NCBI GenBank assembly: GCA_038328815.1
Contig: JBBQMJ010000001.1
Location: 1-29,845 of the forward strand
DNA length: 29,845 nucleotides
Direction of reading: 5' to 3'
Origin: Fimbriimonadales bacterium
GTDB lineage: Bacteria > Armatimonadota > Fimbriimonadia > Fimbriimonadales > Fimbriimonadaceae
The stretch's first letter is position 1. The number at the start of each line of letters is the position of its first letter. The notes under the pieces are model-generated. The model was not told the DNA's origin, made no database searches, and saw only the letters and a program-made list of their open reading frames with translations. The position numbers and the translations under genes were made by a program. Of the stretch, positions 7,415-25,627 are shown piece by piece.

Positions 7415-8146
7415 TCAGTTCTTTGGTGGCTTCGGCGGCGCTGGAGCCTCAATTTTCATCAACTCAAGCTCAAACACGAGAGTAGCAAATGCCGGAATGA
7501 CCGGCGGTCTCCAGTTGGGGCCGTAGGCCATCTGATAGGGAATCGTGACTGTTCTCTTGCCGCCAACCTTCATGCCCGTTGCACCCTTATCAAAACCGGC
7601 GATTAGACCTTTTGCACCAAGCGTGAATTCGATCGGCTCTTTCCTGGGATAGCTGCTGTCAAACACAGTGCCATTTAGGAATTTGCCGGTGTAATGCACT
7701 GACACCTTGTCGCCCGCTTTCGCGGCAAAGCCGGTTCCAGGAGCCACTTCCGCGATATCGAGGGCAGGCTTGTCGTCCTTCTTATCAACGCGCAACAGCT
7801 TGACCTCAAACACCAGGGTGCTCTTTCCAGGAATTCCTTCGACGCCCTTATCTCCGTAGCCCATTGTTGAGGGAATCGAGAGGATGCGCCTACCACCGAC
7901 TTTCATGCCGGCGAAGCCATCGTCCCAACCCTTGATCACCTCACCGGCACCAAGGCTAAATGTGAAAGGCGGCTTGCCAACGGAGCTATCGAAAACCTTG
8001 CCGTCAAGCAGATTGCCTGTGTAATCGACGGTGATCCGGTCTCCAGCAGCCGCTTCTGCTCCCTTCCCGACGGTCATATCAAGGGTCTTAAGGGCATCCC
8101 CTTGGATCGAAAGGGCCAACGCGATGGCGTAACCAAACGTGAACAT
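7415..8146 (-). CDS. FKBP-type PPIase with two FKBP domains and a probable signal peptide
   Basis: Two copies of Y.G...G.VFDSS...F.LG...I.G.D.G..GMKVGG.R...IP...YG, with a hydrophobic N-terminus. Confidence 0.95.
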   Translation of the reverse strand: MFTFGYAIALALSIQGDALKTLDMTVGKGAEAAAGDRITVDYTGNLLDGKVFDSSVGKPPFTFSLGAGEVIKGWDDGFAGMKVGGRRILSIPSTMGYGDKGVEGIPGKSTLVFEVKLLRVDKKDDKPALDIAEVAPGTGFAAKAGDKVSVHYTGKFLNGTVFDSSYPRKEPIEFTLGAKGLIAGFDKGATGMKVGGKRTVTIPYQMAYGPNWRPPVIPAFATLVFELELMKIEAPAPPKPPKN

Positions 8147-10483: not shown

Positions 10484-10525
10484 GGTTCCGCATTTCTGCT
10501 GGCTTCACGGTATCATCCGCAAGTC

Positions 10526-11047
10526 ATGCAGGAACTCCTCGCTCGCTCGTGCATTCGCGATGTCCCGGACTTTCCCAAGCCCGGCATCATGTTCAAGGAC
10601 ATTACGCCAGTCCTTGAGCACCCAGCCGCATTTAAGCAAGCCTGCGACTTACTTGCTGAAGATGCCAGGGCAAAGGGCGCGGAAGCAATTGTCGGCATAG
10701 AAAGCCGCGGCTTCATCTTTGGCGTTCCCGTTGCCATCAGCCTCGGGCTCCCATTTGTCATGGCCCGAAAGCTCGGCAAGCTTCCCTACGACCGCATTAC
10801 CGAAGAATATGCCCTTGAGTACGGCACGAATACTGTCGAGATGCACGTGGACGCGATCAAGAAGGGGCAGAAGGCGTATGTCGTCGATGATCTTCTGGCC
10901 ACAGGCGGTACGGCGGCTGCCGCGGCGCGGCTTGTTGAGCGTCTTCACGGAAGTGTTTGCGGCTTTGGTTTCCTTATTGAACTTTCATTTCTTGAAGGCC
11001 GGCAAAACCTGCTCGGCTACCCCATTCACGCACTCATGGAATTCTAA
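10526..11047 (+). CDS. apt: Adenine phosphoribosyltransferase
   Basis: IRDVPDFPKPGIMFKDIT, GIESRGFIFG, RKLGKLP, YALEYGT and the PRPP motif VVDDLLATGGT. Confidence 0.98.
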   Translation: MQELLARSCIRDVPDFPKPGIMFKDITPVLEHPAAFKQACDLLAEDARAKGAEAIVGIESRGFIFGVPVAISLGLPFVMARKLGKLPYDRITEEYALEYGTNTVEMHVDAIKKGQKAYVVDDLLATGGTAAAAARLVERLHGSVCGFGFLIELSFLEGRQNLLGYPIHALMEF

Positions 11048-11074
11048 GTGAGTCGCTGAGACGGCTTCACAACC

Positions 11075-11992
11075 ATGCCTGCCCAGCTAAAGACCAGCCA
11101 GCCGCTCCTTATCGCTGTCATGGGTACGACGGCTTCCGGGAAAACGCCCCTTGCTGAGGCGCTTGCAGAACGCTTAGGGGCCGGCCTAATCAATGCGGAC
11201 GCGTTCCAGATCTATCGAGGCATGGATATCGGCACCGCGAAGCCTATTCACAAGCATCGATATTCCTTGCTGGACATCAAGAATCCCGATGAAGGTTTTG
11301 GCGTTGGTGAGTGGGTCCAGTTGGCGACTCATGAACTGGAGCTTCTGTGGTCCCAAGGTCGCTCGGCTATTGTCGTTGGCGGCACAGGGCTCTACATTCG
11401 TGCTCTTTTTGAGGAGTTTGATGGGCTCCACCCTGCCCCAGACCCGGAACTACGCGCGGACCTGGAACGCCGCGAGCGCGATGAGGGACTTGCCAACCTT
11501 TTTGCAGAATTGATGGAACGTGATCTGGAAGCGGCAAAGCTCATTGATCCAAAAAATCCTGCTCGAGTCAGGCGCGCCTTAGAGCGCTTGTACTCAAACG
11601 CAGTGCCCATGACGGTCTCGATACCACCATTTATTAGGATTAAATTCGCAATTGATCGCACATTAGAAATGCTGAACGAATCCATAGCGACTCGAACACA
11701 GGATATGATGCAAAATGGTTGGTCACAGGAGGTCACAACCCTCTTGCAAAATGGCTATGTGCCGGAGAACCCTGGCTTTAGGGCCTTGGGTTACCGACAA
11801 GTGTGCAATTATTTGGAGAGAAAATTAGATTTGCAGGAAGCAATCGCGACAACGATCGCGGCCACCCGGCAGTATGCGAAGCGCCAGAGAACTTGGCTAG
11901 CTTCGGAGCCGGGATTGGTAAGGCTGACTGATGGATCTGCGCTCGAAGTTTTTGATCGAGCGATGGGCGTCATAGTCGCCACTTATAGTTAG
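11075..11992 (+). CDS. miaA: tRNA dimethylallyltransferase
   Basis: GTTASGKT P-loop, [27 protein letters not shown] and [11 protein letters not shown]. Adjacent to hfq, as is classical. Confidence 0.97.
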
Positions 11993-12005
11993 GAGCGTTA
12001 ACAGG

Positions 12006-12275
12006 ATGGGTAAAGCAATCAATCTACAGGACATGTTCCTGAACCAGGTGCGAAAAGAAGGCATCGGGGTGACAATCTATCTGACAAACAGCGTGCAACT
12101 CCGCGGGCAGGTCCGTGGTTTTGATGCGTTTACAGTGCTGCTGGATGCGCCGGGTAAGCCAACGCAGCTTGTATACAAGCACGCCGTTGCCAGCATTGTT
12201 CCTGCAAAACCTGTAGGTCAAGGACGACAGCACGAGGACGGGACCTCAGACGAATTTCGTAGAGTATCAGAGTGA
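12006..12275 (+). CDS. hfq: RNA chaperone Hfq
   Basis: [13 protein letters not shown]...IYLTN...GFD.FTVLL...[13 protein letters not shown] lies upstream. Confidence 0.97.
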
Positions 12276-13093
12276 TCCCTTTTACAAAGATGCAGGGCAT
12301 CGGCAATGACTTTGTCATGGTCGATACTCTGCAAGACGAGTTGCCGGAAATCGACATCGCCTCCCTTGCTAGGGCGATAAACGATAGGCGGTTGGGTGTT
12401 GGCGGCGATGGCCTCATCTTGATGGAAAAGGGCGAGACCGCCCCCTTCAAGATGCGCATGTTCAATCCGGACGGTTCGGAAAGTGAGATGTGCGGCAACG
12501 GCATTCGTTGCTTCGTGCGTCTTCTCAAAGACCATAACCACCTAGCCGCAGACACCGTTTCGGTAGAAACGGGAGCCGGGACGCTCAACCTTGAGCTGAA
12601 ACCGAGCGGACTTGTCACTGTCGACATGGGAATCGCCAGGCTAACTCGAGGCGAAATCGGGATGACCGGCCCATCGGACGAGCGATTTGTCGAACAACCC
12701 GTCGATAGGGGATGGCTCGGAACGGCAGTCTCAATGGGAAATCCCCACCTTGTCGTTTTCCTCGAAGATGTCAAAGCAATTGACTTAAGAGATGCAGGTT
12801 CTAGGCTTGAGAATCTATCTATTTTCACGAACCGGACGAACGTTCATTTCGTGCAGGTGCTGAGCCGCAATTCGCTTCTTCAAAGGACTTGGGAGCGAGG
12901 AGCGGGGGCAACACTCGCATGTGGCACCGGAGCCTGCGCGTGCGCCGTCGCAGCCACTCTCACGGGCCGATCTGACCGTGATGTTGAAGTTCAGCTACCC
13001 GGAGGGTCCCTGCAACTTCGGGTTGCGGAAGATTGGAGGGTCTTTATGACTGGCCCCGCAGAAACCGTATTCGAAGGCGTTTGGCAAGACTAG
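12272..13093 (+). CDS. dapF: Diaminopimelate epimerase
   Basis: [38 protein letters not shown] and [13 protein letters not shown] (both catalytic Cys present). Confidence 0.98.
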
Positions 13094-13108
13094 CTGCCTC
13101 GTAACGTA

Positions 13109-13144
13109 AGAAGCCCTGCTGCGATTTGTCGCGACAGGGCTTCT
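13109..13144. terminator. Probable bidirectional terminator between convergent dapF and the PilZ gene
   Basis: AGAAGCCCTG-N16-CAGGGCTTCT is a perfect 10-bp inverted repeat. Confidence 0.65.
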
Positions 13145-13162
13145 CAAATTTGCTGCGTTTGC

Positions 13163-13786
13163 TTACGCGGCCTGTTCATTCGCAAGGAACGTGTGAAGCA
13201 CGTACCGCGAACTGCCGATGAAATCGATAAACTCGATACCAAATCCTGCTTTCTCGTTCGAAAGGTGTGCAACGACGCCCATCATCCGGATGTTCTCTTC
13301 TGCCGACAGTGCGATCTGCACTTCGACGAGGCTGCCCGGCTCGATAGGGTGATCAAGGGTTACCCAGACTCCGCCAACACTGATATCCTCGGTCTCACCG
13401 ACGAATCGCTCTACACTTGATTCGCCTTCGATTTCGCGAATGGCTCTAAGCTGGACTCCAGCCTTGACACCCTGTCGAGGATAGCGACGGCGATCAACCT
13501 CTTCCCAGAGCTCATCTGAGAGTTGAATGTGCCACTCGCCCTCTTCCACAGCGACCGCAGTAACACCGGCTTCCGCCTTGTAATACTCGTTTCGATCAAA
13601 AAGGATGAGAAGAGCCCGATTGCCTTCGCTAACAAGCTTGGCGTCAGCGCTTGTGACGACAACGCTCAAAGGCGATGTTGATGCGATCGATGCTTTTATT
13701 GCCACAGAACCCTGCTCCGTGTAAAACACCAATCGGATTGGGCTACCGGGCCGAATTCGATTTTTCAAGGCTGCAACGTTATCCAC
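13163..13786 (-). CDS. PilZ-domain protein (putative c-di-GMP receptor, YcgR-like architecture)
   Basis: RRRYPR (RxxxR) and DISVGG (DxSxxG) in the C-terminal domain, ending GFGIEF. GTG start. Confidence 0.88.
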   Translation of the reverse strand: MDNVAALKNRIRPGSPIRLVFYTEQGSVAIKASIASTSPLSVVVTSADAKLVSEGNRALLILFDRNEYYKAEAGVTAVAVEEGEWHIQLSDELWEEVDRRRYPRQGVKAGVQLRAIREIEGESSVERFVGETEDISVGGVWVTLDHPIEPGSLVEVQIALSAEENIRMMGVVAHLSNEKAGFGIEFIDFIGSSRYVLHTFLANEQAA

Positions 13787-13842
13787 AGGAGGATTTTCGG
13801 CAATAACGCGGCATTAATTAGAGGTTATTGGCTTCCTTAACC

Positions 13843-14337
13843 TCAATAATCCAACGGCTTGCGGCTCTTGATCCTCTCAATTTCCCTGCGGGAATCGTCT
13901 TGAGCGATCTTGTCGCGCTTGTCATAACTGCTCTTGCCTCGTGCCAAGGCGACTTCCACCTTAACCCGCCCCTTGCTGCTGAAGTACATCTTCGTGGGGA
14001 TGATAGTAAATCCCTTTTCCAGGGACTTCCTGTTCAACGTCGCAATCTCACGGCCGTGCATCAACAATTTACGATCACGGCGGCGCTCCGGTTGGAAGCT
14101 TGTCGCGTGATCATAGGACTCAATATCCAAGTTGATCAAGAACAGTTCGCTTCCTTTGATCAAGCAGTAAGCGTCTGCCAGATTGGCACGCCCAAGGAAT
14201 ACGCTTTTGACTTCGGAACCGACTAGGACAATGCCAGCCTCGTAGGTCTCGACCAATTCGTAGTCGTACCTTGCTCGTCTGTTTTGTATTTGCCTCGGCG
14301 CTTCCGAGGCTTTGCTTTGTGCCTTCTTCTTCGCCAT
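13843..14337 (-). CDS. smpB: SsrA-binding protein SmpB
   Basis: [31 protein letters not shown] and [12 protein letters not shown]. The start is probably ATG 14337 (track GTG 14346). Confidence 0.98.
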
Positions 14338-14376
14338 GGCCCGCACAGTGTACCAACCGAAGGTAAAGTCAGGCCA
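14338..14376. promoter_or_regulatory. 39-bp divergent promoter region with back-to-back -10 boxes
   Basis: Minus-strand ggTACACT (14347-14352) lies 9 nt before the smpB ATG. Plus-strand ggTAAAGT (14364-14369) lies 7 nt before the FKBP GTG at 14377. Confidence 0.5.
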
Positions 14377-14766
14377 GTGAAGAAGCTTCTGTGTTTGCCA
14401 ATTCTAGTGGCGGTTGTGCTTAGTTTTACTGGCTGCGGCACTCCAACTGTAAAGACAACGGATACCGTGGTGGGTACTGGCGATGTAGCTGTTCCCGGCA
14501 AGACCGTTGGCGTGGAGTACACAGGCAAACTTCGGAACGGAATTACATTTGACACCAACGTGGCCTCCGGGAAGCTCCTCTCTTTCACCCTTGGTAAAGG
14601 CGAGGTCATCAAGGGTTGGGATGACGGTCTGCTTAACATGAAAGTAGGCGGCGAGCGAGATCTTGACATTCCCGCATCCCTCGCATACGGTCCGAATAGT
14701 CCCACCCCATTAATCCCGCCAAATTCCGACTTGCTCTTTCACGTAAAACTTGTCTCCGTTAAATAG
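14377..14766 (+). CDS. FKBP-type PPIase, single domain, predicted lipoprotein
   Basis: Start reassigned to GTG 14377, giving [20 protein letters not shown] (lipobox), followed by [22 protein letters not shown] and GMKVGG-like motifs. Confidence 0.93.
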
Positions 14767-14808
14767 GTCTAAGGCGACCGCTTCGGGCTGGAGGTAAAGT
14801 TAGCGATT

Positions 14809-15612
14809 GTGAAGTGCACCGCTCTAACCTTATCCCTTATTGCCGCTTGTCTCCTGAGCGCAGGATGCTCTGAAAAGCCGAAAGAGCCCATTGCGACCGC
14901 GCCTGTTGCTCCGAAGGCTGACGACAAGCCCACCGGTCCTGCGCTGGCTAAGCTCGATATCAAGGACACAAAAGTTGGTTCGGGGACCGACGTCGCTAAG
15001 CCTGGAGCAACCGTATATGTGACCTACGTTGGCAAGCTTGCAAATGGCGAGGAATTTGACGGCAGTGAGAAGCACAACGGCGATCCTCTCTGCTTCACCC
15101 TGGGCGTAGTGCCGCCTCAAGTCATCAAAGGATGGGACCAGGGCCTCGCGGGAATGAAAGTAGGCGGCGAACGCCATCTAGGGATTCCTGCGAAACTTGC
15201 ATACGCCGATCACCCCCCAGCCGGCATTCCATCAAACGCGGATCTTTTCTTTGATGTAAAGCTGCTGGACGTTATCATGCCTGGAGACCAAGGCACGGTC
15301 ATCACCACCGATATCAAGAAAGGTTCAGGCAAGGCTGCTAAGGACGGCGATACAGTTAGCGTCGACTACACTGGCACCCTGGCAAATGGTGTTAAATTTG
15401 ACTCGTCGAAGGACAGGAATCAGGCCTATAGCTTGAAACTAGGCGCTCACGAGGTTGTTCCTGGCTTTGAATCAGGAATCGTAGGAATGAAACTCGGCGG
15501 CGTGCGAAAGCTCAAAATTCCCCCAGCATTGGGCTACGGTCAGAGTGGTCGGCCAGGTATTCCAAGCAACTCGATTTTATATTTCGTGATTGAACTTCGA
15601 TCGATCAACTAG
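14809..15612 (+). CDS. FKBP-type PPIase with two domains, predicted lipoprotein
   Basis: Lipobox LLSAGC, then two FKBP domains (VIKGWDQGLAGMKVGG; KFDSSKDR...VVPGFESGIVGMKLGG). ggTAAAGT lies 8 nt upstream of the GTG. Confidence 0.95.
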   Translation: MKCTALTLSLIAACLLSAGCSEKPKEPIATAPVAPKADDKPTGPALAKLDIKDTKVGSGTDVAKPGATVYVTYVGKLANGEEFDGSEKHNGDPLCFTLGVVPPQVIKGWDQGLAGMKVGGERHLGIPAKLAYADHPPAGIPSNADLFFDVKLLDVIMPGDQGTVITTDIKKGSGKAAKDGDTVSVDYTGTLANGVKFDSSKDRNQAYSLKLGAHEVVPGFESGIVGMKLGGVRKLKIPPALGYGQSGRPGIPSNSILYFVIELRSIN

Positions 15613-15657
15613 GGCTTCGTGCCTGAGGCGACGTAGCTCCGGTACGATCAATAGATA

Positions 15658-16344
15658 ATGAGACTGAGCACTGCGTTGAAAGTCATTTTCCTCACAGTGT
15701 TTTCGACTCTTGCGCTTAGCGCAAGCGCGCAGGTTACGAGGTCGGGCAGCAAATACCTGATCCGCGTTATGTACAAGAAGGGCTCTACCGTCAGGTACTT
15801 GTCGAAAAGCTCGATGGTCACGGGCCCTAAGAAGACCATGACTGTCAACGTCCCGATGACCTTGAGAGTCCTTAATGTGGTCAAGGGAGTAGCGGACATT
15901 AAGGTGACCGTCGGACCAGTAACTGCAAATGGAGCAGTAATGCAGCCAGCGCGGACCACGCCGGTCGTTAAGGTCGACTCCCTTGGCAGGCCCGTGGACG
16001 GCTCCAGCACACCAATGATGAGTGGGAATTTTCCAGTGAAACCGGTTGGTGTAGGCGAGACTTGGTCATCCAACGTCTCTTTGCAGGGAATGCCAATGAA
16101 GGTAACAATGAATTTCATCTTCCGAGGACTGAAGACGGTAGCCGGCAAGTCCTACGCTGTGGTTGGAATTGCCGTGAATAGCGCGTCCAACACGAGCACT
16201 CTGACCGGCCGAGGAGAGATGAGCGTTGCCGCCGCTGACGGTATTGTCTCCAGCATGAACCTCGCGATGACCATAAAGGTCCCTGCCAGCCAGACCAGTA
16301 ATGGCGGCTCAGTTGCTTTCACAACAACGATGGTCCGCAAGTAG
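15658..16344 (+). CDS. Secreted beta-strand-rich hypothetical protein (DUF6263-like)
   Basis: Signal peptide ending ALSASA-Q and motif FPVKPVGVGETWS. The DUF assignment is from recollection only. Confidence 0.7.
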   Translation: MRLSTALKVIFLTVFSTLALSASAQVTRSGSKYLIRVMYKKGSTVRYLSKSSMVTGPKKTMTVNVPMTLRVLNVVKGVADIKVTVGPVTANGAVMQPARTTPVVKVDSLGRPVDGSSTPMMSGNFPVKPVGVGETWSSNVSLQGMPMKVTMNFIFRGLKTVAGKSYAVVGIAVNSASNTSTLTGRGEMSVAAADGIVSSMNLAMTIKVPASQTSNGGSVAFTTTMVRK

Positions 16345-16359
16345 GGTCTTGGTCGCCAA

Positions 16360-17103
16360 ATGCACTTTGAGCCCATTGAGCGAGCCGCTGGTTCGGACAA
16401 GCGTCTTCTAGAATTGCTTCGTGGCCATCCGCGGGTTACCGAAGTTCTTAAGGATGCCTCGGAGAAGGGGCTGCGCTTCGAACGCCAGGGATATTCACGC
16501 CACATTTCGATTGGTGACGCCAGCGAGCCGTTAAGAGGTCTCGTAGAGCTTCTCGACAACAACCCCCTCGTCTGCACCGATCGTTTTTCCGTCCCAGATG
16601 CCGCCGCCACTCTAGCATTGATTGCCCTTGGACCTCTTGCAGAAGCCGGCCTCATTCTCGAAGCCCCAATTTTCATCTCGAATTTGGAACTCAACGAAGC
16701 CCGCATAGACGCCTTCTTGTCGACCGCCGGCTGGCACGGAGGTGTGAATGTTTCCAGCGAAGTGTCAATAAGTAAGACCATTGGAATGGCCACCGCGATG
16801 GCTTCGATCAGAACGCCCGAGAATCTCGAAGAACTGGATGCGCTCTATGAGGAGCGCTATGGACGGTCCTTCTACGTTCGGCTCGCCGATGAATCAAGTT
16901 GGAATCCCAGTACTGTCGAGGGTCAACCCTATGCCTTATATCGCCTTAGGATATCTGTTGATGAAGGCATCAGCATTCTCACGATTCAAGTCTTGGCGGA
17001 CGTAGCGGGAAAATGTGGCGCAGCTCAAATCGTCCATGCGATGAACGTCATGTGCGGCTTCGAGGAAACCCTGGGTCTGGAGCGCGCCTATTCCGGCTTG
17101 TGA
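16360..17103 (+). CDS. ArgC (N-acetyl-gamma-glutamyl-phosphate reductase)-derived protein lacking the catalytic Cys and most of the NADPH-binding domain
   Basis: Collinear ArgC-like blocks: LLELLRGHPRV, GLVEL, FSVPDAAATLALIALGPLAEAGLI, LDALYEERYGRSFYVRL and GKCGAAQIVHAMNVMCGFEETLGL. Confidence 0.8.
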   Translation: MHFEPIERAAGSDKRLLELLRGHPRVTEVLKDASEKGLRFERQGYSRHISIGDASEPLRGLVELLDNNPLVCTDRFSVPDAAATLALIALGPLAEAGLILEAPIFISNLELNEARIDAFLSTAGWHGGVNVSSEVSISKTIGMATAMASIRTPENLEELDALYEERYGRSFYVRLADESSWNPSTVEGQPYALYRLRISVDEGISILTIQVLADVAGKCGAAQIVHAMNVMCGFEETLGLERAYSGL

Positions 17104-17369
17104 ATGATGTCTGGACCTTTCTCGCCAGCAACCTTTTCCCAGACCCCTTTACCTGCCTTCTTCCAGGTCGAGAACCCTTTCGCTGCTGCTTTGTCAGCGT
17201 CGACGCCTTTTCCGACCTTGAAACTGGCGCGGCTAATGATGCGATGAACGGCAAGGCCGCAAGTCGGGCAAAACTTGAGGTGATCCTCTTCGACTCCCTG
17301 CATTACCTCGACGACGCCGTCGCATAGAAAGCAATCTCGATCTTCCGGTTCGTATTCGTAAATGGGCAC
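17088..17369 (-). CDS. FmdB-family zinc-ribbon protein
   Basis: MPIYEY...C.LC...CPTCG..V.RIIS, with a basic C-terminal extension. Overlaps the convergent upstream gene by 16 bp. Confidence 0.88.
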   Translation of the reverse strand: MPIYEYEPEDRDCFLCDGVVEVMQGVEEDHLKFCPTCGLAVHRIISRASFKVGKGVDADKAAAKGFSTWKKAGKGVWEKVAGEKGPDIIHKPE

Positions 17370-17387
17370 GAGCTTCTACCTAAGATT

Positions 17388-18065
17388 ATGACGATCAAAC
17401 CGCCGAACACCAGATCACAATTCTTCGAGTCGCTCAACTGCGAGATTTCTGAATGCCGTTTGTGTCCTCGCCTAGTGGAGTGGCGAGAGCAAGTAGCGGC
17501 CGAAAAGCGTAAGTCCTTCGCCGAGTGGACTTACTGGGGGCGCGGCGTTCCCGCTTTTGGTGACCCTGACGCTGAGCGCCTCATTGTCGGCCTGGCGCCG
17601 GCTGCCCACGGTGCGAACCGGACCGGAAGGATGTTTACGGGAGATCGTAGTGGCGACTGGATTTACAGGGCTTTGTTCAAGGTGGGCATTGCTAGCCAGC
17701 CGACATCCGTGCAAATTGGCGATGGCCTCACTCTCAAGGGGGCAATGATTTGTGCCGTGGCGCACTGCGCACCGCCCGATAACAAGCCAACGCCCGAGGA
17801 GATTCAAAACTGCTCTACTTATCTCCTTTCGATTCTTGAGAATCAGCGCTGGAAGGCGATACTCTGCCTCGGCGGCATTGCTTGGGATCAGGTTTTGAAA
17901 CGCTCTGGTGAACGGCGACAACCGTTCGGCCACGGTCGGCAATACAGGTCCGGAAATGGCACGCTCTTCGTTGCTTCTTACCATCCTAGTCAGCAGAACA
18001 CGTTTACTGGTCGCTTAACTGAAGATATGCTGGATGAGGCCGTTGGAACGTGGGCCTGTGGATAG
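17388..18065 (+). CDS. Uracil-DNA glycosylase, family 5 (UdgB-type, 4Fe-4S)
   Basis: CRLCPRL, GLAPAAHGANRTGRMFTGDRSG (family-5 motif A), HCAPPDNKP and SYHPSQQNT (motif B). Confidence 0.95.
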   Translation: MTIKPPNTRSQFFESLNCEISECRLCPRLVEWREQVAAEKRKSFAEWTYWGRGVPAFGDPDAERLIVGLAPAAHGANRTGRMFTGDRSGDWIYRALFKVGIASQPTSVQIGDGLTLKGAMICAVAHCAPPDNKPTPEEIQNCSTYLLSILENQRWKAILCLGGIAWDQVLKRSGERRQPFGHGRQYRSGNGTLFVASYHPSQQNTFTGRLTEDMLDEAVGTWACG

Positions 18066-18255
18066 CACTATGAGTAATTCCAGTGCTCGAGTCACAAGCG
18101 AAGCCGCCTCATACGTAAAATTGGTTGGAAATAGCCAATCCTGAGCCTAGGATAGGCGAAGAGAACCCGGCGCACCTAAAGAGGTCTCCTAGCGATCCGC
18201 TGAGACGTCCAATCATCGGTCGCCTCGCATAAGGCGACAGATGCTCCTTGACAAC

Positions 18256-18654
18256 CTAGTCCTCGATTTCGTCATCCCACACAAACGGTGTCCCTGGTGG
18301 CAAAGGGTCGCGGCTGTTGTACGGCAGATAAATTCTTACTTGGTTCGCCTGCTCGCTTTCCTCGAACGGCTCTCTGCCATAAGCCTTGGGTCTGCGCCGC
18401 TCTAGCCACCACGCAGCGGCTCGCCAAGTGCCGGTCGCCGCGGCCTGCATAACTTGGGCAAGTGCCGCCGCTTCAGCCTCGGTTTCCGCTAACTCCATAT
18501 TCTCGCAAAATTTTGGATCTTCCTTAAGGTAGCGATAAAGAGTTCTCCTGCTGTAACCAGCGCGTGCAGCAGCGACGTCCCGGGTGTTCCCAGCCCTAAG
18601 AGCCTCGAACACCTTTTCATCCCGCCCCGCATCTCGCTTGGTCGGCCTACTCAT
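18256..18654 (-). CDS. Phage terminase small subunit-like HTH protein (orphan)
   Basis: From ATG 18654 (GAAGGTG upstream): MSRPTK...EALRAGNTRDVAAARAGYSRRTLYRYL...AETEAE...WRAAAWWLERRRPKAYGR...VRIYLPYNSRD. This pattern is typical of TerS-type phage HTH proteins as I recall them. Confidence 0.65.
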   Translation of the reverse strand: MSRPTKRDAGRDEKVFEALRAGNTRDVAAARAGYSRRTLYRYLKEDPKFCENMELAETEAEAAALAQVMQAAATGTWRAAAWWLERRRPKAYGREPFEESEQANQVRIYLPYNSRDPLPPGTPFVWDDEIED

Positions 18655-18833
18655 TTCTTGCACCTTCGAAACCAGTGCCAAATGTGCCAAAACCCATGCA
18701 AGTCCAAACGTTCGATCCGGGCAAAAGCTTCGGTCGCGAGCCCTAATCCGGCCTCCCAAGCGCCTCTGACCTAACGAGGAGCGATTAGCAAGGTCGAAAC
18801 GGGGAGGTCGTTGCATCGCTTCAGTTGGCCGTA

Positions 18834-18872
18834 GTTGTCATCTTGAGCGCAGCCGCAGAGAAGGATGACAAC
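18834..18872. repeat. REP-like palindrome GTTGTCATC-N21-GATGACAAC
   Basis: Perfect 9-bp inverted repeat. The GTCATCTTGAGCG start resembles the 6913 element. Confidence 0.6.
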
Positions 18873-18927
18873 AGAGGCCATTTGGCTAACAGGTAGCGAT
18901 CCAATGAAACGAGAGGCCTCGAGAATC

Positions 18928-20097
18928 CTACTTGGTCTCGTTGACGAGTGAAACACGATCCAAATCAAATCGCTTAAGGTCTCCATTGCGGGAAACGGAG
19001 ATTTTGACCTTGCTCCCAAGCGGCCCGTCAAGCATCTTCTTGAGTTGCCGGTACTGTTGCGTCGTTAAATCCACGTCGCCGATACTTAAGAGCTCGTCGT
19101 CTTCTTTCAGGCCAGCCTTGTCGGCAGGGCTACCAGGAGCAACGCTGAAAACCACAACCTTACGGTGCTGCGAGTCAAAAGCAGCTGAGAATCCAGGCTC
19201 GCCAATGATCTCGTTGCCGACCTGCTCGGTTATTCTTTCCAGCCAAACACGTCTGCGCTCATAGTCGAACGTGACGTTGAAATTCTTTAAGAATTGGTAG
19301 CCAACCGTTCCGTCAGATTCAGCCGATCCGGAAGGCAAATCAATGACATCCCATACGCTCGAAGCTACCGGGACTCCAAAAATATTCGAGTTAGCTACGT
19401 GCAGGGACCAACTGTCCACAGGCCCAGAAGCGATTTCTGCCTGGTGCATAAAATTCGCCTTCTTGCCTTCAGGCCAGAGGCCTACACGCTCCAAAACGTC
19501 CCGGTGGGTCGTAAGGTAGAAACCGTTCCCAGTATCCAGAGAAAGGACAAAGGACTTCCCCGCTCCGACATTTGCTTCCATGACAATCGCGTTGTCGCCA
19601 ATCGGGAGCATCTTATTGAGGAAGGTCGCCTTACCGTCAGGAGTCTTCGTGCTGATATCGAAGGCTTTCGGGTGGAAGATGAACATGTGCTTCTGAAAGT
19701 TGATTTCAGTCACATACTTTTGAAGCACGCTCAAGCCCAGAATTCCGTCGGTGTGGCTATGGTATTCGGCGGACATTCTTGCCATCGGTTGCTGGACGAT
19801 GACCATGTCCTGGGTGTCGATTGATTGGCCGCCCAGCTTGATGCTCTTAGCCTTGACGGTTCCAACCTCGATTTCGCCCACGAAGTCCCGCAGGGTCATT
19901 TTGCCGCTCGGCGCCCCAACGTCAATTGCATTGTTGAGAACTACTGCTCCGCCGAATCCCGAGTCAAACATGAGGGACACAGGTCGATCATTTACGACTG
20001 CATCAACAATGAGGGCGTCGTCAGTCACCCTAAAGGGAACTTCAATGTTCGCGGCTTGGGTGAGCGCTATAAAGCAAAACGCAGCAGCTAGTGGCAT
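18928..20097 (-). CDS. Aspartyl protease (two retropepsin-like lobes) with a C-terminal PDZ domain
   Basis: LMFDSGFG and LSLDTGNG catalytic motifs, DGILG and DGTVG flap/psi motifs, and PDZ motif VAPGSPADKAGLKEDDELLSIG. Confidence 0.88.
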   Translation of the reverse strand: MPLAAAFCFIALTQAANIEVPFRVTDDALIVDAVVNDRPVSLMFDSGFGGAVVLNNAIDVGAPSGKMTLRDFVGEIEVGTVKAKSIKLGGQSIDTQDMVIVQQPMARMSAEYHSHTDGILGLSVLQKYVTEINFQKHMFIFHPKAFDISTKTPDGKATFLNKMLPIGDNAIVMEANVGAGKSFVLSLDTGNGFYLTTHRDVLERVGLWPEGKKANFMHQAEIASGPVDSWSLHVANSNIFGVPVASSVWDVIDLPSGSAESDGTVGYQFLKNFNVTFDYERRRVWLERITEQVGNEIIGEPGFSAAFDSQHRKVVVFSVAPGSPADKAGLKEDDELLSIGDVDLTTQQYRQLKKMLDGPLGSKVKISVSRNGDLKRFDLDRVSLVNETK

Positions 20098-20132
20098 GTA
20101 TAAAATAGACTCCCGGATTGCGCTGACGATTA

Positions 20133-20963
20133 CTACGGGTTAGACGGCTTTTTTCGACCCGCCATTAGGTAGATAGGCATCGTAATGAAACCGAAACCGC
20201 ATACGCTACAAGATCCACAGAGAACTTGAGGGGCGATCCAGATCCAATTACCACGTCGGTCCACGATGTCCAGAATTAGCCAACCCAGCATGCCAAGCTT
20301 GTTGCCCAAGAAAAGGAGCCCCACGATCTGGGGAATGGCGTGTTGTGAGGCCGCCTGCATCCCTGCCTGATCTCCCTTAAATTGAGAAAATAGCGGGATG
20401 ATTACTGACGCGAAGTACAGGATGAACGCGAGGTCAAGCGCAGCCAAAACTGCTCCGATTCCAACCCACCCACCTCCTAATTTTGGAACAAATCCAAGAG
20501 AATGCTCAGGTGGTGCATAGCCCGCCGGATACGCGGTTTGGACCGTGGTCGTCTGACCTCCAACTGGAGCCGAGGGAGATGCGTTGCTGGGCGCGACTCC
20601 GGATTCCGATTCAATCCTAAGAATGAGGTCCCGCGCTCCCGCATGGCTTGGCTCTAAACGCGCCGCCTCTTGCGCCATGCTCGAGGCCTCAACCTTTTGG
20701 CCCTGGCTATAAAGGTGAACAGCGAAATTGAAATAAGCCTTGGCACTATCCGGACCGAGCGTAATCGACTGTCTAAACGCATCTGTGGCCGCCTGCGGCT
20801 GATTACTCTGAGACAGCGCAATAGCCCTTAAAAGGTGAGCCTCAGCATTATTCGGACTAAGCGCGACGGCCTGATCCGCGAGCTCAAGGGCTTGAGCAAC
20901 CTGCCCGCTTTGGAGGGATTGAGTTGCCTGATCGATAAATTGTTTCGCTTGTTCTTCAGCCAT
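20133..20963 (-). CDS. TPR-repeat protein with a C-terminal membrane domain
   Basis: N-terminal TPRs (ALSPNNAEAHLLRAIAL; LGPDSAKAYFNFAVHLY), a Pro/Ala/Ser linker and about 3 hydrophobic helices. Confidence 0.85.
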   Translation of the reverse strand: MAEEQAKQFIDQATQSLQSGQVAQALELADQAVALSPNNAEAHLLRAIALSQSNQPQAATDAFRQSITLGPDSAKAYFNFAVHLYSQGQKVEASSMAQEAARLEPSHAGARDLILRIESESGVAPSNASPSAPVGGQTTTVQTAYPAGYAPPEHSLGFVPKLGGGWVGIGAVLAALDLAFILYFASVIIPLFSQFKGDQAGMQAASQHAIPQIVGLLFLGNKLGMLGWLILDIVDRRGNWIWIAPQVLCGSCSVCGFGFITMPIYLMAGRKKPSNP

Positions 20964-21071
20964 GTTTTAACTCGGGATCAATGTCGGACTCGAATTTACC
21001 TAAATCTGCAACAAATGGTGAGTGGAACACAGGGGCCCACGGAAACCGTAGCAGAGGGTTAGTGATTTCTG

Positions 21072-21077
21072 TATACT
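21072..21077 (+). promoter_or_regulatory. Putative -10 element TATACT for the liv operon
   Basis: Near-consensus hexamer 57 nt upstream of GTG 21135. No good -35 seen. Confidence 0.35.
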
Positions 21078-21134
21078 GTCCACGCGGTAGAAATCTTGCC
21101 CCGCGTATCTGACCGTAATTTTGGGTTAAACCAG

Positions 21135-22412
21135 GTGAAAAGTTTGAAGATTAGCAATGCTACCAAGGCCGCCATTGCGGCTCTCGTTATCGGCCCGCTC
21201 CTTGCCGGATGTCCTGCCGGCGACGCGGCAAAGACTGAAACGGACAAAGGGACCCCAGCTAAGACTGGAGACGTTGCCAAGACCGACGCCAAGCCAAGGC
21301 CAGTCTCTACAGCGCCAGGCAACAAGGCCGCTGGCGACACGATAATCATCGGCCTCGTCGCTAGCGAAAACGGCGACCAAAAGCCATGGGGCGACGACAA
21401 TGTGAAGGGCGCTCAGCTCGCAGTTAAGGATTTTGAAGCCGCGGGAGGAATCCCTGGCAAGAAGATTCAACTCCAGATCGAGGACAGCGCCTCAAAGCCT
21501 GAGCAGGGCAAGAGCGCTGCTGAAAAGCTGATCGCTGCTGGAGCGCTCGTACTTGACGGCGAAGTGGCCAGCGGAATCACCATGCAAATGGGTCAGGCCG
21601 CATTCGAGAAGGGCGTTCCCGTTGTTGCTGTTGGAGCTACTCGCACTGACCTCACGGAGCTTGGATCAAACATGTTCCGCGTCTGCTATGCGGACGACTT
21701 CCAGGGACCGGTAATGGCGAACTTCGCTTATAAGGATTTGGGCCTTCACAAAGTCGGCGTCATGACTGACAAGAAGCTCCCATACTCCACAGGTCTCAGC
21801 GACAGCTTCAAGGCGACTTTCATTAAGCTCGGCGGCGAGATCGTTGACGAGCAGTTCTATGAGGCTGGCCAGAAGGACTTCAAAGGTCAGCTAACGAACC
21901 TAAAGTCCAAGAATCCAGAAGGCATCTTCTGCAGCGGCTACTTCACGGAAGTTGGCCCGCTTGCAAAGCAGGCCCGAGACCTGGGCATCACGGTTCCGCT
22001 CATGGGTGGCGATGGTTGGGATAGCCCAACGATCATCACTTCTGGTGGCGATGGCATCATCGGCGGCTACTTCTGCAACCACTATAACGACAAAGACTCT
22101 CGACCTCAGGTCAAGACGTTCCTTGACCACTGGGCTAAGGCTTACAACGGTTCAAAGCCTGGTACCACCATGGGCGCACTTGGCTACGATGCTATGAGCG
22201 TGACATTGGATGCAGTTAAGCGAGCCAAGGCACTCGATTCAAAGTCGATCATCGATTCGCTTGAGGACACCGACAAATTCCCGGCCGTCTCAGGAGATAT
22301 CACCCTCAAAGGCATGAGAGGCACTCCTCCAAAGCGAGCGCTCGTCGTTCAAGTCACGAAGGACGGCTTTGTCTTCAAGAAGGATTACACTCCTGATCAG
22401 GTGACTAAGTAG
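21135..22412 (+). CDS. livK: Branched-chain amino acid ABC transporter substrate-binding lipoprotein (LivK/LivJ family)
   Basis: Lipobox LLAGC, IEDSASKPEQG, FRVCYADDFQG, PLMGGDGWD and ALGYDA. The start is probably GTG 21135 (track 21096). Confidence 0.9.
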   Translation: MKSLKISNATKAAIAALVIGPLLAGCPAGDAAKTETDKGTPAKTGDVAKTDAKPRPVSTAPGNKAAGDTIIIGLVASENGDQKPWGDDNVKGAQLAVKDFEAAGGIPGKKIQLQIEDSASKPEQGKSAAEKLIAAGALVLDGEVASGITMQMGQAAFEKGVPVVAVGATRTDLTELGSNMFRVCYADDFQGPVMANFAYKDLGLHKVGVMTDKKLPYSTGLSDSFKATFIKLGGEIVDEQFYEAGQKDFKGQLTNLKSKNPEGIFCSGYFTEVGPLAKQARDLGITVPLMGGDGWDSPTIITSGGDGIIGGYFCNHYNDKDSRPQVKTFLDHWAKAYNGSKPGTTMGALGYDAMSVTLDAVKRAKALDSKSIIDSLEDTDKFPAVSGDITLKGMRGTPPKRALVVQVTKDGFVFKKDYTPDQVTK

Positions 22413-22437
22413 CTTGATCGCAGTGTTTCCAAACTTA

Positions 22438-23598
22438 ATGGCAGCGTTGGACTTTTCAACGCTGCCACAACAAGTCGTGAATGGGCTCCTCCTTGGAGCC
22501 ATTTACGCTTTGATTGCACTCGGCTACACCATGGTGTACGGAGTTCTTAAGCTTATTAACTTTGCTCATGGCGAGGTGTATATGCTTGGTGCGTACGTCG
22601 CTCTCCTTACTTCATGGAAGCTAGGCTATACGCAGGAGCAGTTGGCGGTATCGGATTTGCCAGCATCGGCGCTGAACTTATTTATCATGTTCTTCGCCGC
22701 GATAGTCATTTGCGCGATTATCGGCGTTGTCATAGAGCGATTTGCTTACCGGCCGATGCGAGGAACTTCGAGGATTGCTTCGCTGATCACCGCGATTGGC
22801 GTCTCCCTTTTCCTTCAGTACGGCGGAGCGCTCGTGCTGCCAATCAGCCCCCCACCATCCATTTCCGACCATGTCAGCCCATTCAAAGGGTCCATTACCA
22901 AGACAATAATTCCAGCCTCGGCCGCTCTCCAAGACAAGATCGCGGCATCCAAGCCGGCTTATGACGCGGCTGAGAAGACTTTTAACGACTATCTGGCCGA
23001 GAAGCACTTAGACCGATTCAATTTGCCTCCGGATGGTGAGAAGCTGCGTGACACAGCGAGCGCAGCAGAGCGGACCTATACCGAGGCCAAGGGCTCTGCA
23101 TCCAATTCTGCCGTGCAGGTCACGGTTCAGAAAGGTCAACTGATCATGTTTGGCATGGCGGTCTTCCTGATGATCGTGCTACGGTTCCTGGTTATGAAAA
23201 CGCCGGCAGGCCGCGCGATGCGAGCCGTCTCGCACGATTTCGATTCGGCGTCCCTGATGGGCATTAATGTGAACCGGATTATTGTTTTCACGTTCGTCCT
23301 TGGCTCCGGGCTAGCCGGCGCGGGCGCAATGATGACTTCCACGTTTCTCAGCACGCCCCTAACGACCTTTTATGGAATGGAAGCAGGTGTTAAGGCCTTC
23401 ACAGCTGCCGTCCTTGGTGGAATCGGAAATATTCCAGGCGCCGTGCTTGGCGGCCTGTTAATGGGCGTTGCCGAGTACATGGTTGTTTGGGCTGGCTACT
23501 CCAGCTACCGAGACGCGATCGCTTTTGTTATTCTCATTGTGGTTCTGCTCGTTAAGCCTGGTGGCCTTCTCGGTTCCTCTAAGGTGGAAAAGGTTTGA
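22438..23598 (+). CDS. livH: Branched-chain amino acid ABC transporter permease LivH, with a large inserted loop
   Basis: NGLLLGAIYALIALGYTMVYGVLKLINFAHGE, GRAMRAVS.D...ASLMGIN and KAFTAAVLGGIGNIPGA. Alternative start TTG 22414. Confidence 0.95.
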   Translation: MAALDFSTLPQQVVNGLLLGAIYALIALGYTMVYGVLKLINFAHGEVYMLGAYVALLTSWKLGYTQEQLAVSDLPASALNLFIMFFAAIVICAIIGVVIERFAYRPMRGTSRIASLITAIGVSLFLQYGGALVLPISPPPSISDHVSPFKGSITKTIIPASAALQDKIAASKPAYDAAEKTFNDYLAEKHLDRFNLPPDGEKLRDTASAAERTYTEAKGSASNSAVQVTVQKGQLIMFGMAVFLMIVLRFLVMKTPAGRAMRAVSHDFDSASLMGINVNRIIVFTFVLGSGLAGAGAMMTSTFLSTPLTTFYGMEAGVKAFTAAVLGGIGNIPGAVLGGLLMGVAEYMVVWAGYSSYRDAIAFVILIVVLLVKPGGLLGSSKVEKV

Positions 23599-24809
23599 AG
23601 TACTGGGTCGTTCGCATTGCCAGCATCGCGCTGGCTCTCTTTGCCTGCTACGGCATCGATATGATGAGTGCGGGTTGGAATTCCTACAGCCAGCGCATTT
23701 TTGCACTGGTGGGTCTGTACGTCACCCTTGCCGTTAGCCTCAACCTTATTAATGGAATTACTGGGCAGTTCTCAATCGGCCATGCGGCTTTCTATCAGGT
23801 CGGCGCCTATCTCAGCGGCTACATTAGCGTGACCTTTTACGACAAGATGGGCGTTCATGGCTTGCCCTGGCTGTTCTTGATGATGTTTGCCGGCGCCGCC
23901 GGGGCAGCAGTTGCCGGCCTCGTTGTCGGATTACCTTCGCTTCGATTACGTGGTGACTACCTTGCCATTGTAACGATGGGCTTTGGTGAGATCATACGGA
24001 TCATCGTCGAGAACACGGACAAGATCGGCGGTTCGTATGGCCTCAACGTTCAGCCCAAGTTCTTGCATGTCGGCGTCATATGGCTGCTCGCCATTGTTTG
24101 TATCGCGGTCTGCCGAAACCTACTTAAGACCGCCCACGGTCTGCCCTTCCTTGCGGTCCGAGAGGACGAGATTGCCAGTTCGGCAATGGGCGTGAACGTC
24201 ACGTCGACGAAGGTGACGGCCTTTGTTTTAGGATCTGCATTTGCCGGTGCCGCGGGCGCGCTGCTTGCCCATTACGAAGGGTTCATCACTCCGACCACGT
24301 TTGCGATGGACACGTCTTTCATCATCCTGACCATGGTTGTCCTGGGCGGAACCGGATCCATCACTGGCAGCGCCATCTCAGCTGCCCTGTTGGCCTATTT
24401 GCCTGAATACTTACGAACGCTGCAAAACGCTGATGGAACGCCGCTCGCGGTGACGGGCTCGTCGGTTATGGCCGCCCTCCTGACGGTTGCCGTCGCGGTT
24501 GGGGCCATTCGTGCCGTGATTAACATGCCGGGAGCGAGCGCGCAAAAACGGACGCTCTATATCTTGGGAGCCATTTTGGCGTCAGGGCTAGTCAAGATCA
24601 TCTTTCAAATCGCCCTGTTGCAAGTCCCCTATCTTGCCAAGCTGCATATTGAGGCGGGCCAACTTAGGATGGTCATCTTCGCCGTTAGTCTGGTAGTGAT
24701 CATGCTCATCAGGCCACAAGGAATCTTCGCTCACCACGAATTCAGTTGGAGTTGGGTTAAGAAGGTCTTGTTCAGGAAAGAAGGTCCAAAGACGGCGGTG
24801 GCCTCGTGA
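23595..24809 (+). CDS. livM: Branched-chain amino acid ABC transporter permease LivM
   Basis: LNLINGITGQFSIGHAAF, LRLRGDYLAIVTMGFGEI, AVREDEIASSAMGVN and RPQGIF. Confidence 0.95.
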   Translation: MKYWVVRIASIALALFACYGIDMMSAGWNSYSQRIFALVGLYVTLAVSLNLINGITGQFSIGHAAFYQVGAYLSGYISVTFYDKMGVHGLPWLFLMMFAGAAGAAVAGLVVGLPSLRLRGDYLAIVTMGFGEIIRIIVENTDKIGGSYGLNVQPKFLHVGVIWLLAIVCIAVCRNLLKTAHGLPFLAVREDEIASSAMGVNVTSTKVTAFVLGSAFAGAAGALLAHYEGFITPTTFAMDTSFIILTMVVLGGTGSITGSAISAALLAYLPEYLRTLQNADGTPLAVTGSSVMAALLTVAVAVGAIRAVINMPGASAQKRTLYILGAILASGLVKIIFQIALLQVPYLAKLHIEAGQLRMVIFAVSLVVIMLIRPQGIFAHHEFSWSWVKKVLFRKEGPKTAVAS

Positions 24810-25570
24810 GCCTGCTGAAGCTCAACAAGGCAACGATTCGGTTTGGTGGTCTTGTGGCCGTCAACGAAGTGAGCTTCGATCTTGAAAAGGGCGATCTCTT
24901 CGGCCTAATCGGCCCTAACGGCGCCGGCAAGACGACTTGTTTCAACCTGATTACCGGTGTATACACGCCAACGTCGGGTGAGATTGTGTTTCAAGGCAAA
25001 CAGATTCAGGGCACCCCTTCAAATCGTATAGCTAGCCTAGGCATAGCGCGAACCTTCCAAAATATCAGGCTCTTCCCCGCTCTATCAGTTTTGGAGAACG
25101 TAGTCGTCGGCGGATTCCTTAGACACAAGACCGGGCTGTTCAGCGCCCTTGCCTATCTCCCCAATTCAATAAAAGAGACAACGCGACTTAAGGACGAGGC
25201 TTACCATCTGCTAGAAATCCTCGACCTGGAAGACGTGGCTGATACTCGTAGCGCAGACTTGCCCTACGGAAAGCAGCGACGCTTAGAAATTGCCCGCGCA
25301 ATGGCCACGCAACCGGAGTTGCTCCTGTTGGATGAGCCCGCAGCGGGCATGAACCCGCAGGAATCTGAAGACCTAATGCGCACCGTGCGCAAACTTCGAG
25401 ACGAGCACGGCAAGACCGTCCTGCTCATAGAGCACGATATGAAGTTCGTTATGAACCTCTGCGAAAAGATTTTCGTGCTGGACCACGGCGAGCAAATTGC
25501 CTACGGCGGTCCCAGTGAAGTCCGCAATGACCCGAAGGTCATCGCAGCGTATCTTGGCGAAGCCGTTTAA
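24806..25570 (+). CDS. livG: Branched-chain amino acid ABC transporter ATP-binding protein LivG
   Basis: FGGLVAV, GPNGAGKTT, ARTFQNIRLF, LPYGKQRRLEIARA, LLDEPAAGMN, LIEHDM and VIAAYLG. Confidence 0.96.
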   Translation: MSLLKLNKATIRFGGLVAVNEVSFDLEKGDLFGLIGPNGAGKTTCFNLITGVYTPTSGEIVFQGKQIQGTPSNRIASLGIARTFQNIRLFPALSVLENVVVGGFLRHKTGLFSALAYLPNSIKETTRLKDEAYHLLEILDLEDVADTRSADLPYGKQRRLEIARAMATQPELLLLDEPAAGMNPQESEDLMRTVRKLRDEHGKTVLLIEHDMKFVMNLCEKIFVLDHGEQIAYGGPSEVRNDPKVIAAYLGEAV

Positions 25571-25627
25571 CTGGGAGATTTTCGTAAGTCCGGACGCAGG
25601 CCCAAACTATCCTGCGACTACATTGAA

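Follow-up and report, generated by a model that had tools for sequence, protein, structure and literature searches.

A compacted ArgC homologue without the catalytic and cofactor sites of the reductase, conserved in Fimbriimonadia-type Armatimonadota as a candidate functional pseudoenzyme

The window analysed here is the whole stretch of 29,845 nucleotides taken from a Fimbriimonadales bacterium (contig JBBQMJ010000001.1 of assembly GCA_038328815.1, positions 1 to 29,845). One of its genes, P0001, hereafter the target, was found to encode a true homologue of ArgC, the N-acetyl-gamma-glutamyl-phosphate reductase, in which the fold is kept from end to end in a compacted form and the catalytic and cofactor-binding apparatus is missing. 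The target is maintained by selection in most of the sampled genomes of its class, is independent of the arginine genes, and is paired with the same upstream gene in a majority of the genomes that carry it. We favour the view that it is a clade-specific functional pseudoenzyme derived from ArgC/LysY, which would serve as a non-catalytic binding module. The gene and the parts of it that are discussed below are listed here, with the basis of each assignment.

16360..17103, plus strand: the target gene (P0001), an intact open reading frame of 247 amino acids encoding a compacted ArgC-fold protein, with no signal peptide
16360..16521, plus strand: remnant of the Rossmann (NADPH) domain, residues 1-54 (secondary structure of the model, VIA-align)
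16546..16575, plus strand: hallmark motif ELxDNNPxxC, residues 63-72, ELLDNNPLVC (family alignments)
16594..16611, plus strand: dead active-site position, residues 79-84, PDAAAT (hhalign; HMMER alignment to LysY)
16753..16761, plus strand: HRH-equivalent site, residues 132-134, SSE (hhalign)
16999..17076, plus strand: retained ArgC C-terminal strand-helix motif, residues 214-239, DVAGKCGAAQIVHAMNVMCGFEETLG (hhalign, family alignment)

An original prediction, made by eye from the sequence, had described an intact frame of 247 amino acids at this position that runs collinearly with ArgC, and both parts of this description held. The match to the ArgC model TIGR01850 was weak yet significant, with an E value of 2.6e-11 and 43.3 bits (35.4 bits in the search of the genome). 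It did not reach the equivalog cutoff of 233.6 bits, and the best stretch covered model positions 242-340 only. The Pfam dimerisation domain Semialdhyde_dhC_1 (PF22698) was detected at residues 143-197 only, with 18.3 bits and E 0.0022, which is below the 27-bit gathering cutoff, and the Pfam search gave no match in the target to the NAD-domain Semialdhyde_dh (PF01118). Among solved structures, the top relatives by sequence were Thermus LysY and ArgC (E ~1e-4). The best of these was LysY, the [LysW]-aminoadipate/glutamate phosphate reductase (PDB 5EIO, 5EIN), which was matched by the target at E 9.5e-5 and by the family profile at E 8.5e-6.

An AlphaFold2 model of the target was built on a 20-sequence family alignment and reached a predicted local distance difference test (pLDDT) score of 93.5 and a predicted template modelling (pTM) score of 0.91. 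The superposition of the model on ArgC, which had been proposed together with the original prediction, gave an end-to-end match. VIA-align placed 230 of the 247 residues on the GAPDH-like two-domain architecture of ArgC with a Z score of 21.5 and a root-mean-square deviation of 2.7 Å (model residues 4-247 over ArgC 0-337), and Foldseek matched the model to ArgC/LysY with E 1.5e-13. ArgC and LysY led the fold matches at Z 19.7-21.5 (20.9 for LysY), while ASADH/GAPDH stayed at or below 17.6, and the template modelling score by query was ~0.8 against the ArgC/LysY clusters in Atlas. The GAPDH-like two-domain fold with a C-terminal helix returning to the N-domain, by which membership of ArgC is recognised, was present in the model. 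As the target matches ArgC from end to end, it represents a compacted whole ArgC and not a fragment. These results demonstrate that the target is a true ArgC homologue. A homodimer prediction with two target copies scored 0.03, a value that speaks neither for nor against dimerisation.

A residue map was obtained by aligning the family profile (A1) by hhalign to canonical ArgC from the genomes of relatives (A2). Target residues 55-242 were aligned on ArgC 129-347 with a probability of 97.5% and E 7e-12, and each of the collinear matches that had been listed by eye was reproduced by this profile-profile alignment. Roughly 190 positions are alignable, too few for so long a branch to be assigned reliably to a donor ArgC lineage. 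GLVEL paired with YGLPEL of ArgC, SVPDAAAT with ANPGCYPT, LYEERYGRSFYVRL with LYTEFYxxQPFVxV, and DVAGKCGAAQIVHAMNVMCGFEETLGL with a 27-residue ArgC stretch. The motifs that the target has in common with ArgC (TIGR01850, EC 1.2.1.38; PDB 1VKN, 2I3A) are LLxxHP, GLxEL, the P..T.LAL.PL..AGL helix, LY.E.Y...F.V and D..xK.GA.Q...MN...G..E..GL. The ArgC counterpart of the retained C-terminal motif is DNLxKGAAGQAxQNMN...GxPExxGL; in the target, the Asn that follows the Asp is lost and Gln327 is replaced by H226, a replacement seen in most members of the family, with Gln in 14 of 231.

The same map located the losses. The N-domain of the target has 54 residues against ~128 in ArgC, with ~75 Rossmann residues missing. 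What is left comprises strand 1, helix A with LLxxHPRV, strand 2 and a hairpin bearing the invariant R47; the Gly-rich loop and the DLSxDFR segment, which holds the phosphate-binding Arg, are missing, and a GxGxxG-like loop was found in none of the 231 family sequences. A81 occupies the place of the catalytic Cys of ArgC/LysY (PGCYPT; Cys158 in 2I3A), and the HMMER alignment to LysY, which is independent of hhalign, likewise sets position 81 on Cys148. The orthologues do not retain this Cys: the position is Pro in 133 of the 231 sequences, Ala in 77, Gly in 7 and Cys in a single one. S132-S133-E134 align with the HRH of ArgC (His217/His219, 2I3A numbering), where the catalytic His position is Glu; position 134 is Glu in 142 family sequences, Asp in 33, Gln in 14 and His in 2. 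The SGVSGAG loop and a ~20-residue PHLxPxxRG segment of ArgC fall in deletions of the target. The substitution of the Cys by Ala at residue 81, the degenerate or deleted N-terminal Rossmann motifs, and the absence of SGxSGAG and HRH had all been read from the sequence beforehand, and the alignments agree with that reading. Compared with ArgC, the target is thus ~100 residues shorter and without the Gly-rich loop, DLSxDFR, SGxSGAG and PHLxPxxRG, and its family has Ala or Pro at the catalytic Cys, xxE for HRH, and the new ELxDNNPxxC motif.

In ArgC, Cys158 is the nucleophile, His219/His217 is the activating base and Arg114 is the phosphate anchor, in 2I3A numbering (PMC12041015). Counterparts of all of these are missing from the target. 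Because the NADPH site and the Cys/His pair are lost, as are the segment with the phosphate-binding Arg and the substrate loops SGxSGAG and PHLxPxxRG, N-acetyl-gamma-glutamyl phosphate would not be expected to be reduced, and the target is, as judged from its residues, incapable of ArgC chemistry. The Asn after the conserved Asp of DNLxKGA, which would correspond to the nicotinamide-positioning Asn of GAPDH-type folds, is variable in the target family.

The distribution of the family was followed at several scales. A word-indexed search returned 349 homologues of ~235-245 amino acids with 47-61% identity; those that are named all come from Fimbriimonas, Fimbriimonadaceae or Armatimonadetes, and none of those listed has a precomputed Pfam domain. 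When 1.84 billion representatives were scanned exhaustively with HMMER, 150 clusters were obtained at E <= 1e-10, all of 277 amino acids or less, and no full-length ArgC was among them. A single intact copy was found in 51 of the 61 genomes sampled from the class, spanning 24 genera and two taxonomic families (47/53 in the taxonomic family of the window, 3/3 in a sister family and 0/4 in two other families). No target turned up in the remainder of the phylum sample, where the only match (1e-12) lies within a 382-amino-acid frame. The apparent absence in genome G023 proved to be a very divergent 212-amino-acid copy in the same slot, and the gene is cleanly missing from G040 and G050. Longer "fused" frames of up to 444 amino acids were rejected as start-codon artefacts with Arg-rich spurious N-termini; none of the 150 best representatives has a fused form.

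Selection on the gene was estimated as the ratio of nonsynonymous to synonymous divergence (dN/dS, omega) by the Nei-Gojobori method on orthologue pairs. As dS exceeded 1 in every pair, the omega values are upper bounds only; these ranged from 0.16 to 0.5 and were similar to those of the flanking UDG and dapF genes. Across 114 members, 31 columns reach a conservation of at least 97%, and the deletions relative to ArgC are identical across the family. An intact frame at saturated synonymous divergence is strong evidence of purifying selection. Homology to an enzyme, family-wide loss of the catalytic and cofactor residues, and purifying selection are the features by which a pseudoenzyme is recognised, and the target, as far as its sequence tells, presents all three.

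The genomes of the class were searched for the genes of arginine synthesis. The original prediction had proposed looking for a separate canonical argC, and such a gene was present above the cutoff in 50 of the 61 genomes; the target coexists with full-length argC in most of the genomes that bear it. Seven genomes that are 97-100% complete hold the target without canonical argC, and in the five of these that were tested (G005, G035, G048, G060 and G006, 97-99% complete) argC, argB and argJ are all absent. As a control, the same argB search was positive in 5/5 argC-containing relatives. In the opposite direction, six genomes have argC and no target, and G023 has its very divergent copy only. Neither argC nor argB was found in the genome of the window itself, but that assembly is only 72% complete. 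Neither the window, as had already been remarked, nor the related loci examined showed arg genes near the target. Given the fact that the target is kept in near-complete genomes without argC, argB and argJ, it is neither an obligate partner of ArgC nor a sensor of acetylated pathway intermediates, and its function is independent of arginine biosynthesis.

Two side observations were made during these searches. Several near-complete genomes of the class lack argC, argB and argJ, which suggests that the acetylated-glutamate route to ornithine has been lost repeatedly, with either arginine auxotrophy or a different route as the outcome. Apart from the target, a single semialdehyde-dehydrogenase-like gene was found in the genome of the window, at locus L001 (G000:C5:9465-9956, frame L001:1240-2514), a 424-amino-acid frame that matches ArgC model positions 2-190 only (E 4e-14) and has similar matches in nearly every relative; it is probably an aspartate-semialdehyde dehydrogenase or a relative of one.

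The hallmark motif ELxDNNPxxC had escaped the original prediction, as had the conserved pairing with the upstream gene. Within it, E63 is inherited from YGLPEL of ArgC, and D66, N67, N68, P69 and C72 are, together with R47, new to the family. D66, N67, N68, P69 and C72 are invariant in 114/114 closer members, where R47 and E63 are invariant as well, and each of the seven residues is kept in 226-230 of the 231 family sequences. The motif is still present in copies with only 25-32% identity to the protein of the window. In the model, C72 closes a short helix (67-72), which is followed by strand 75-78, and stands nine residues ahead of the dead active-site position; given this location it is not a displaced catalytic Cys. 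Three metagenomic proteins of 218-221 amino acids (P0250, P0252 and P0268; 21-25% identical) have neither the DNNPxxC motif nor the GFEExLG tail; they form either a subgroup that has degenerated further or an offshoot of its own.

The genes that surround the target in the window were identified, and the three closest are as follows.

14809..15612, plus strand: FKBP-type peptidyl-prolyl isomerase with two FKBP domains and a lipoprotein signal (LSAGC)
15658..16344, plus strand: upstream DUF6263-like gene, encoding an exported protein of 228 amino acids that carries a signal peptide and is modelled as an all-beta, barrel-like fold
17088..17369, minus strand: FmdB-like Zn-ribbon gene (Zn_ribbon_8), 93 amino acids, E 5.6e-8, just under the Pfam cutoff

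The order along the window is apt, miaA, hfq, dapF, PilZ (minus strand), smpB (minus), FKBP lipoprotein, DUF6263-like gene, target, the convergent Zn-ribbon gene, UDG, an Asp-protease/PDZ gene (minus), a TPR gene (minus) and livK/H/M/G, and this block is also found around the most divergent members of the family. A block of ~15-20 kb (window ~10500-25600; loci L041 and L043) keeps its order though the targets in it are only 26-32% identical, a synteny that is unusually stable for unrelated housekeeping genes.

The DUF6263-like gene stops 15 bp upstream of the target ATG, and in at least 40 of the 51 target-bearing genomes the best-scoring copy of this gene is the direct upstream neighbour of the target and shares its strand. 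The two genes overlap by 4 bp in L043 and L047, and the pair stays joined where the wider block is rearranged (L026 and L040). The FKBP gene heads a recurrent unit of FKBP, DUF6263-like gene and target. The DUF6263-like protein was modelled at pLDDT 82 with the fold of a beta-barrel or lipid-shell-like sheet, and was most similar to autotransporter beta-domains (Z 12.4), followed by lipovitellin-type shells (Z 10.9) and a lipoprotein from Bacteroidales (Z 10.3); no mention of DUF6263 was found in the literature. On the other side, the 3' end of the Zn-ribbon gene, whose product has a basic tail, overlaps that of the target by 16 bp; many relatives have this gene downstream of the target too, and in L043 and L047 the two overlap by 4 bp. 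A scan of 14600-17500 for promoter and terminator consensus sequences gave nothing above shuffled controls. Among sequencing runs, a search listed no RNA but only DNA from a sediment metagenome, which is probably the origin of the assembly. A TAGGGT hexamer, found by eye, lies 12 nt before the target ATG, which is outside the N6-9 spacing that the first reading of the window had proposed for leaderless starts.

Other members of these neighbouring families were also observed. The DUF6263-like family has 1-7 matches per genome in the class (for example G000:C418:1812-2411), some of them inside frames of ~1150-1220 amino acids. A second, paralogous FKBP-type peptidyl-prolyl isomerase gene with two FKBP domains is located at window 7415-8146 on the minus strand, ~7 kb from the plus-strand copy at 14809-15612.

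Our preferred reading, to which we give a probability of roughly 0.55, is that the target is a clade-specific functional pseudoenzyme from ArgC/LysY, a non-catalytic binding module that would use the R47/E63/DNNPxxC patch and the retained C-terminal helix. An ArgC paralogue would have shrunk from ~345 to ~240 residues while keeping the ArgC architecture in miniature, with a vestigial N-domain, the sheet of the catalytic/dimerisation domain and the C-terminal helix. The original active and cofactor sites would have been excised in the process, and the protein retained for a function outside arginine synthesis. The putative working site would combine the C-terminal helix with R47, E63, D66-N67-N68-P69 and C72 of the vestigial N-domain, and its role would be binding rather than catalysis. 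Given that the target has no signal peptide and that 11 of the 51 genomes have lost the pairing, the link to the upstream DUF6263-like gene is read as probable co-expression and not as a sign of physical interaction. Such co-expression with an exported beta-barrel protein, and often with the FKBP lipoprotein too, may indicate a cytoplasmic role that is loosely tied to envelope proteins.

Several points weigh against this reading. An invariant Cys that is embedded in a motif of invariant polar residues could just as well point to a new catalytic site, and the new invariant residues may form either a surface patch or a buried packing network. The 11 genomes in which the pairing is missing include all three of the sister family, where two membrane-protein genes without a Pfam match stand upstream in an arrangement that is not conserved even inside one genus, and G040 and G050 retain the DUF6263-like gene and have lost the target. 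The whole ~20-kb block from apt to livG is syntenic across the clade, so the adjacency of the target and the DUF6263-like gene may be partly inherited. Both upstream products are exported and the target has no signal peptide, for which reason a physical interaction is not obvious.

The first of these points leads to the alternative that survives best, which we regard as possible and clearly less probable than a binding module: a cofactor-independent active site built on the ArgC scaffold around C72, with R47, E63, D66, N67, N68 and perhaps H226 and D74, for a reaction unrelated to arginine. The invariance of D66, N67, N68, P69 and C72 in the closer members, their retention in ~227 of 231 sequences and the like conservation of R47 and E63 speak for it, as polar residues that are invariant in this way are met more often in active sites than in scaffolds. 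A weak hint of a contact between D74 and H226 near C72 comes from position 74, which is Asp in 180/209 motif-bearing sequences with H226 and in 5/11 with Q226, although these counts are not corrected for phylogeny and so for the relatedness of the sequences. The pair of Cys and His is not universal, however, since residue 226 is back to the ancestral Gln in the 14 members mentioned above, which otherwise look intact. C72 is at the C-terminal end of its short helix, where activated thiols are usually N-terminal; moreover, no cofactor site is left and the gene has no metabolic context.

The original prediction had also suggested a heteromeric regulator of the true ArgC or a metabolite sensor, that is, a dead paralogue that would pair with ArgC through the dimerisation domain or sense N-acetylglutamyl phosphate or the semialdehyde. 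We consider this improbable. The sheet of the catalytic/dimerisation domain is retained, most target-bearing genomes also hold canonical argC, and dead paralogues that regulate an active partner exist, as with the prozyme of trypanosome AdoMetDC (PMC5201418). Like the prozyme, the target is a dead paralogue under selection beside an active enzyme in most genomes; the prozyme requires its active partner, whereas the target persists in genomes without ArgC. In the seven near-complete genomes without argC the partner is absent, and in the five tested, which lack argB and argJ too, so is the ligand, while the six genomes with argC and no target show the converse. Every substrate-contacting segment is deleted or replaced, and the target never adjoins arg genes in the loci examined. 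The original idea of a repurposed non-catalytic protein therefore stands as regards an origin from ArgC, the lack of ArgC chemistry and the absence of decay, and finds no support as regards regulation of ArgC or sensing of its pathway.

A residual N-acetyl-gamma-glutamyl-phosphate reductase, or another semialdehyde dehydrogenase with unconventional residues, is less probable still. JGI pipelines label many members "N-acetyl-gamma-glutamylphosphate reductase" and the overall fold is ArgC-like, but the score falls far short of the equivalog cutoff (43.3 against 233.6 bits), the dinucleotide-binding loop and ~75 Rossmann residues are missing, and the Cys, the His and the Arg segment are gone family-wide. 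The protein, moreover, coexists with full-length argC in most genomes and persists where argB or argJ is absent. A decaying argC pseudogene or a gene-calling artefact, which the very low similarity to ArgC and the large deletions might have suggested, is refuted by the comparative data, as the original prediction had held in ruling out simple decay: a single intact ~240-amino-acid frame persists in 51 of 61 genomes and 24 genera at dS >1, with a confident model, the 31 conserved columns, and losses and deletions that are the same family-wide.

Among known systems, LysY is the closest solved relative by sequence, and it keeps Cys148, His209, Arg102 and the NADP site (PMC12041015), none of which the target has. 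The LysW system uses an acidic-tailed Zn-ribbon carrier, whereas the Zn-ribbon neighbour of the target is of the FmdB type, convergent and basic-tailed, and no lys or arg carrier-pathway genes of the LysX, LysZ, LysJ or LysK type were found in the block around the target. USG-1 and part of Asd2 are branches of the GapDH superfamily without any catalytic residue and with no known function (PMC12041015), and like the target family they are catalytically dead branches of the same superfamily. They derive from aspartate-semialdehyde dehydrogenase, whereas the target family goes back to ArgC/LysY, has been strongly compacted and occurs in one order of Armatimonadota only. The USG-1 and Asd2 dead branches are, as far as is known, of near-normal length.

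Dead enzyme paralogues are known as a phenomenon, and yet no pseudoenzyme family derived from ArgC or LysY is described in PMC12041015 or was found in our literature searches. The target offers a clean case in which the fold is confidently kept after the excision of ~100 residues, including whole functional blocks, and thereby a compact model for the minimisation and re-use of a two-domain dehydrogenase scaffold. Members labelled as N-acetyl-gamma-glutamylphosphate reductase should not be counted as ArgC, as the label would wrongly credit arginine prototrophy to genomes without argB, argC and argJ. If the reading as a new enzyme were true, the family would represent an uncharacterised enzyme class on the semialdehyde-dehydrogenase fold, restricted to Fimbriimonadia-type Armatimonadota. 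The target, being nearly universal in one taxonomic family, gives a way into the biology of a phylum that has received little study.

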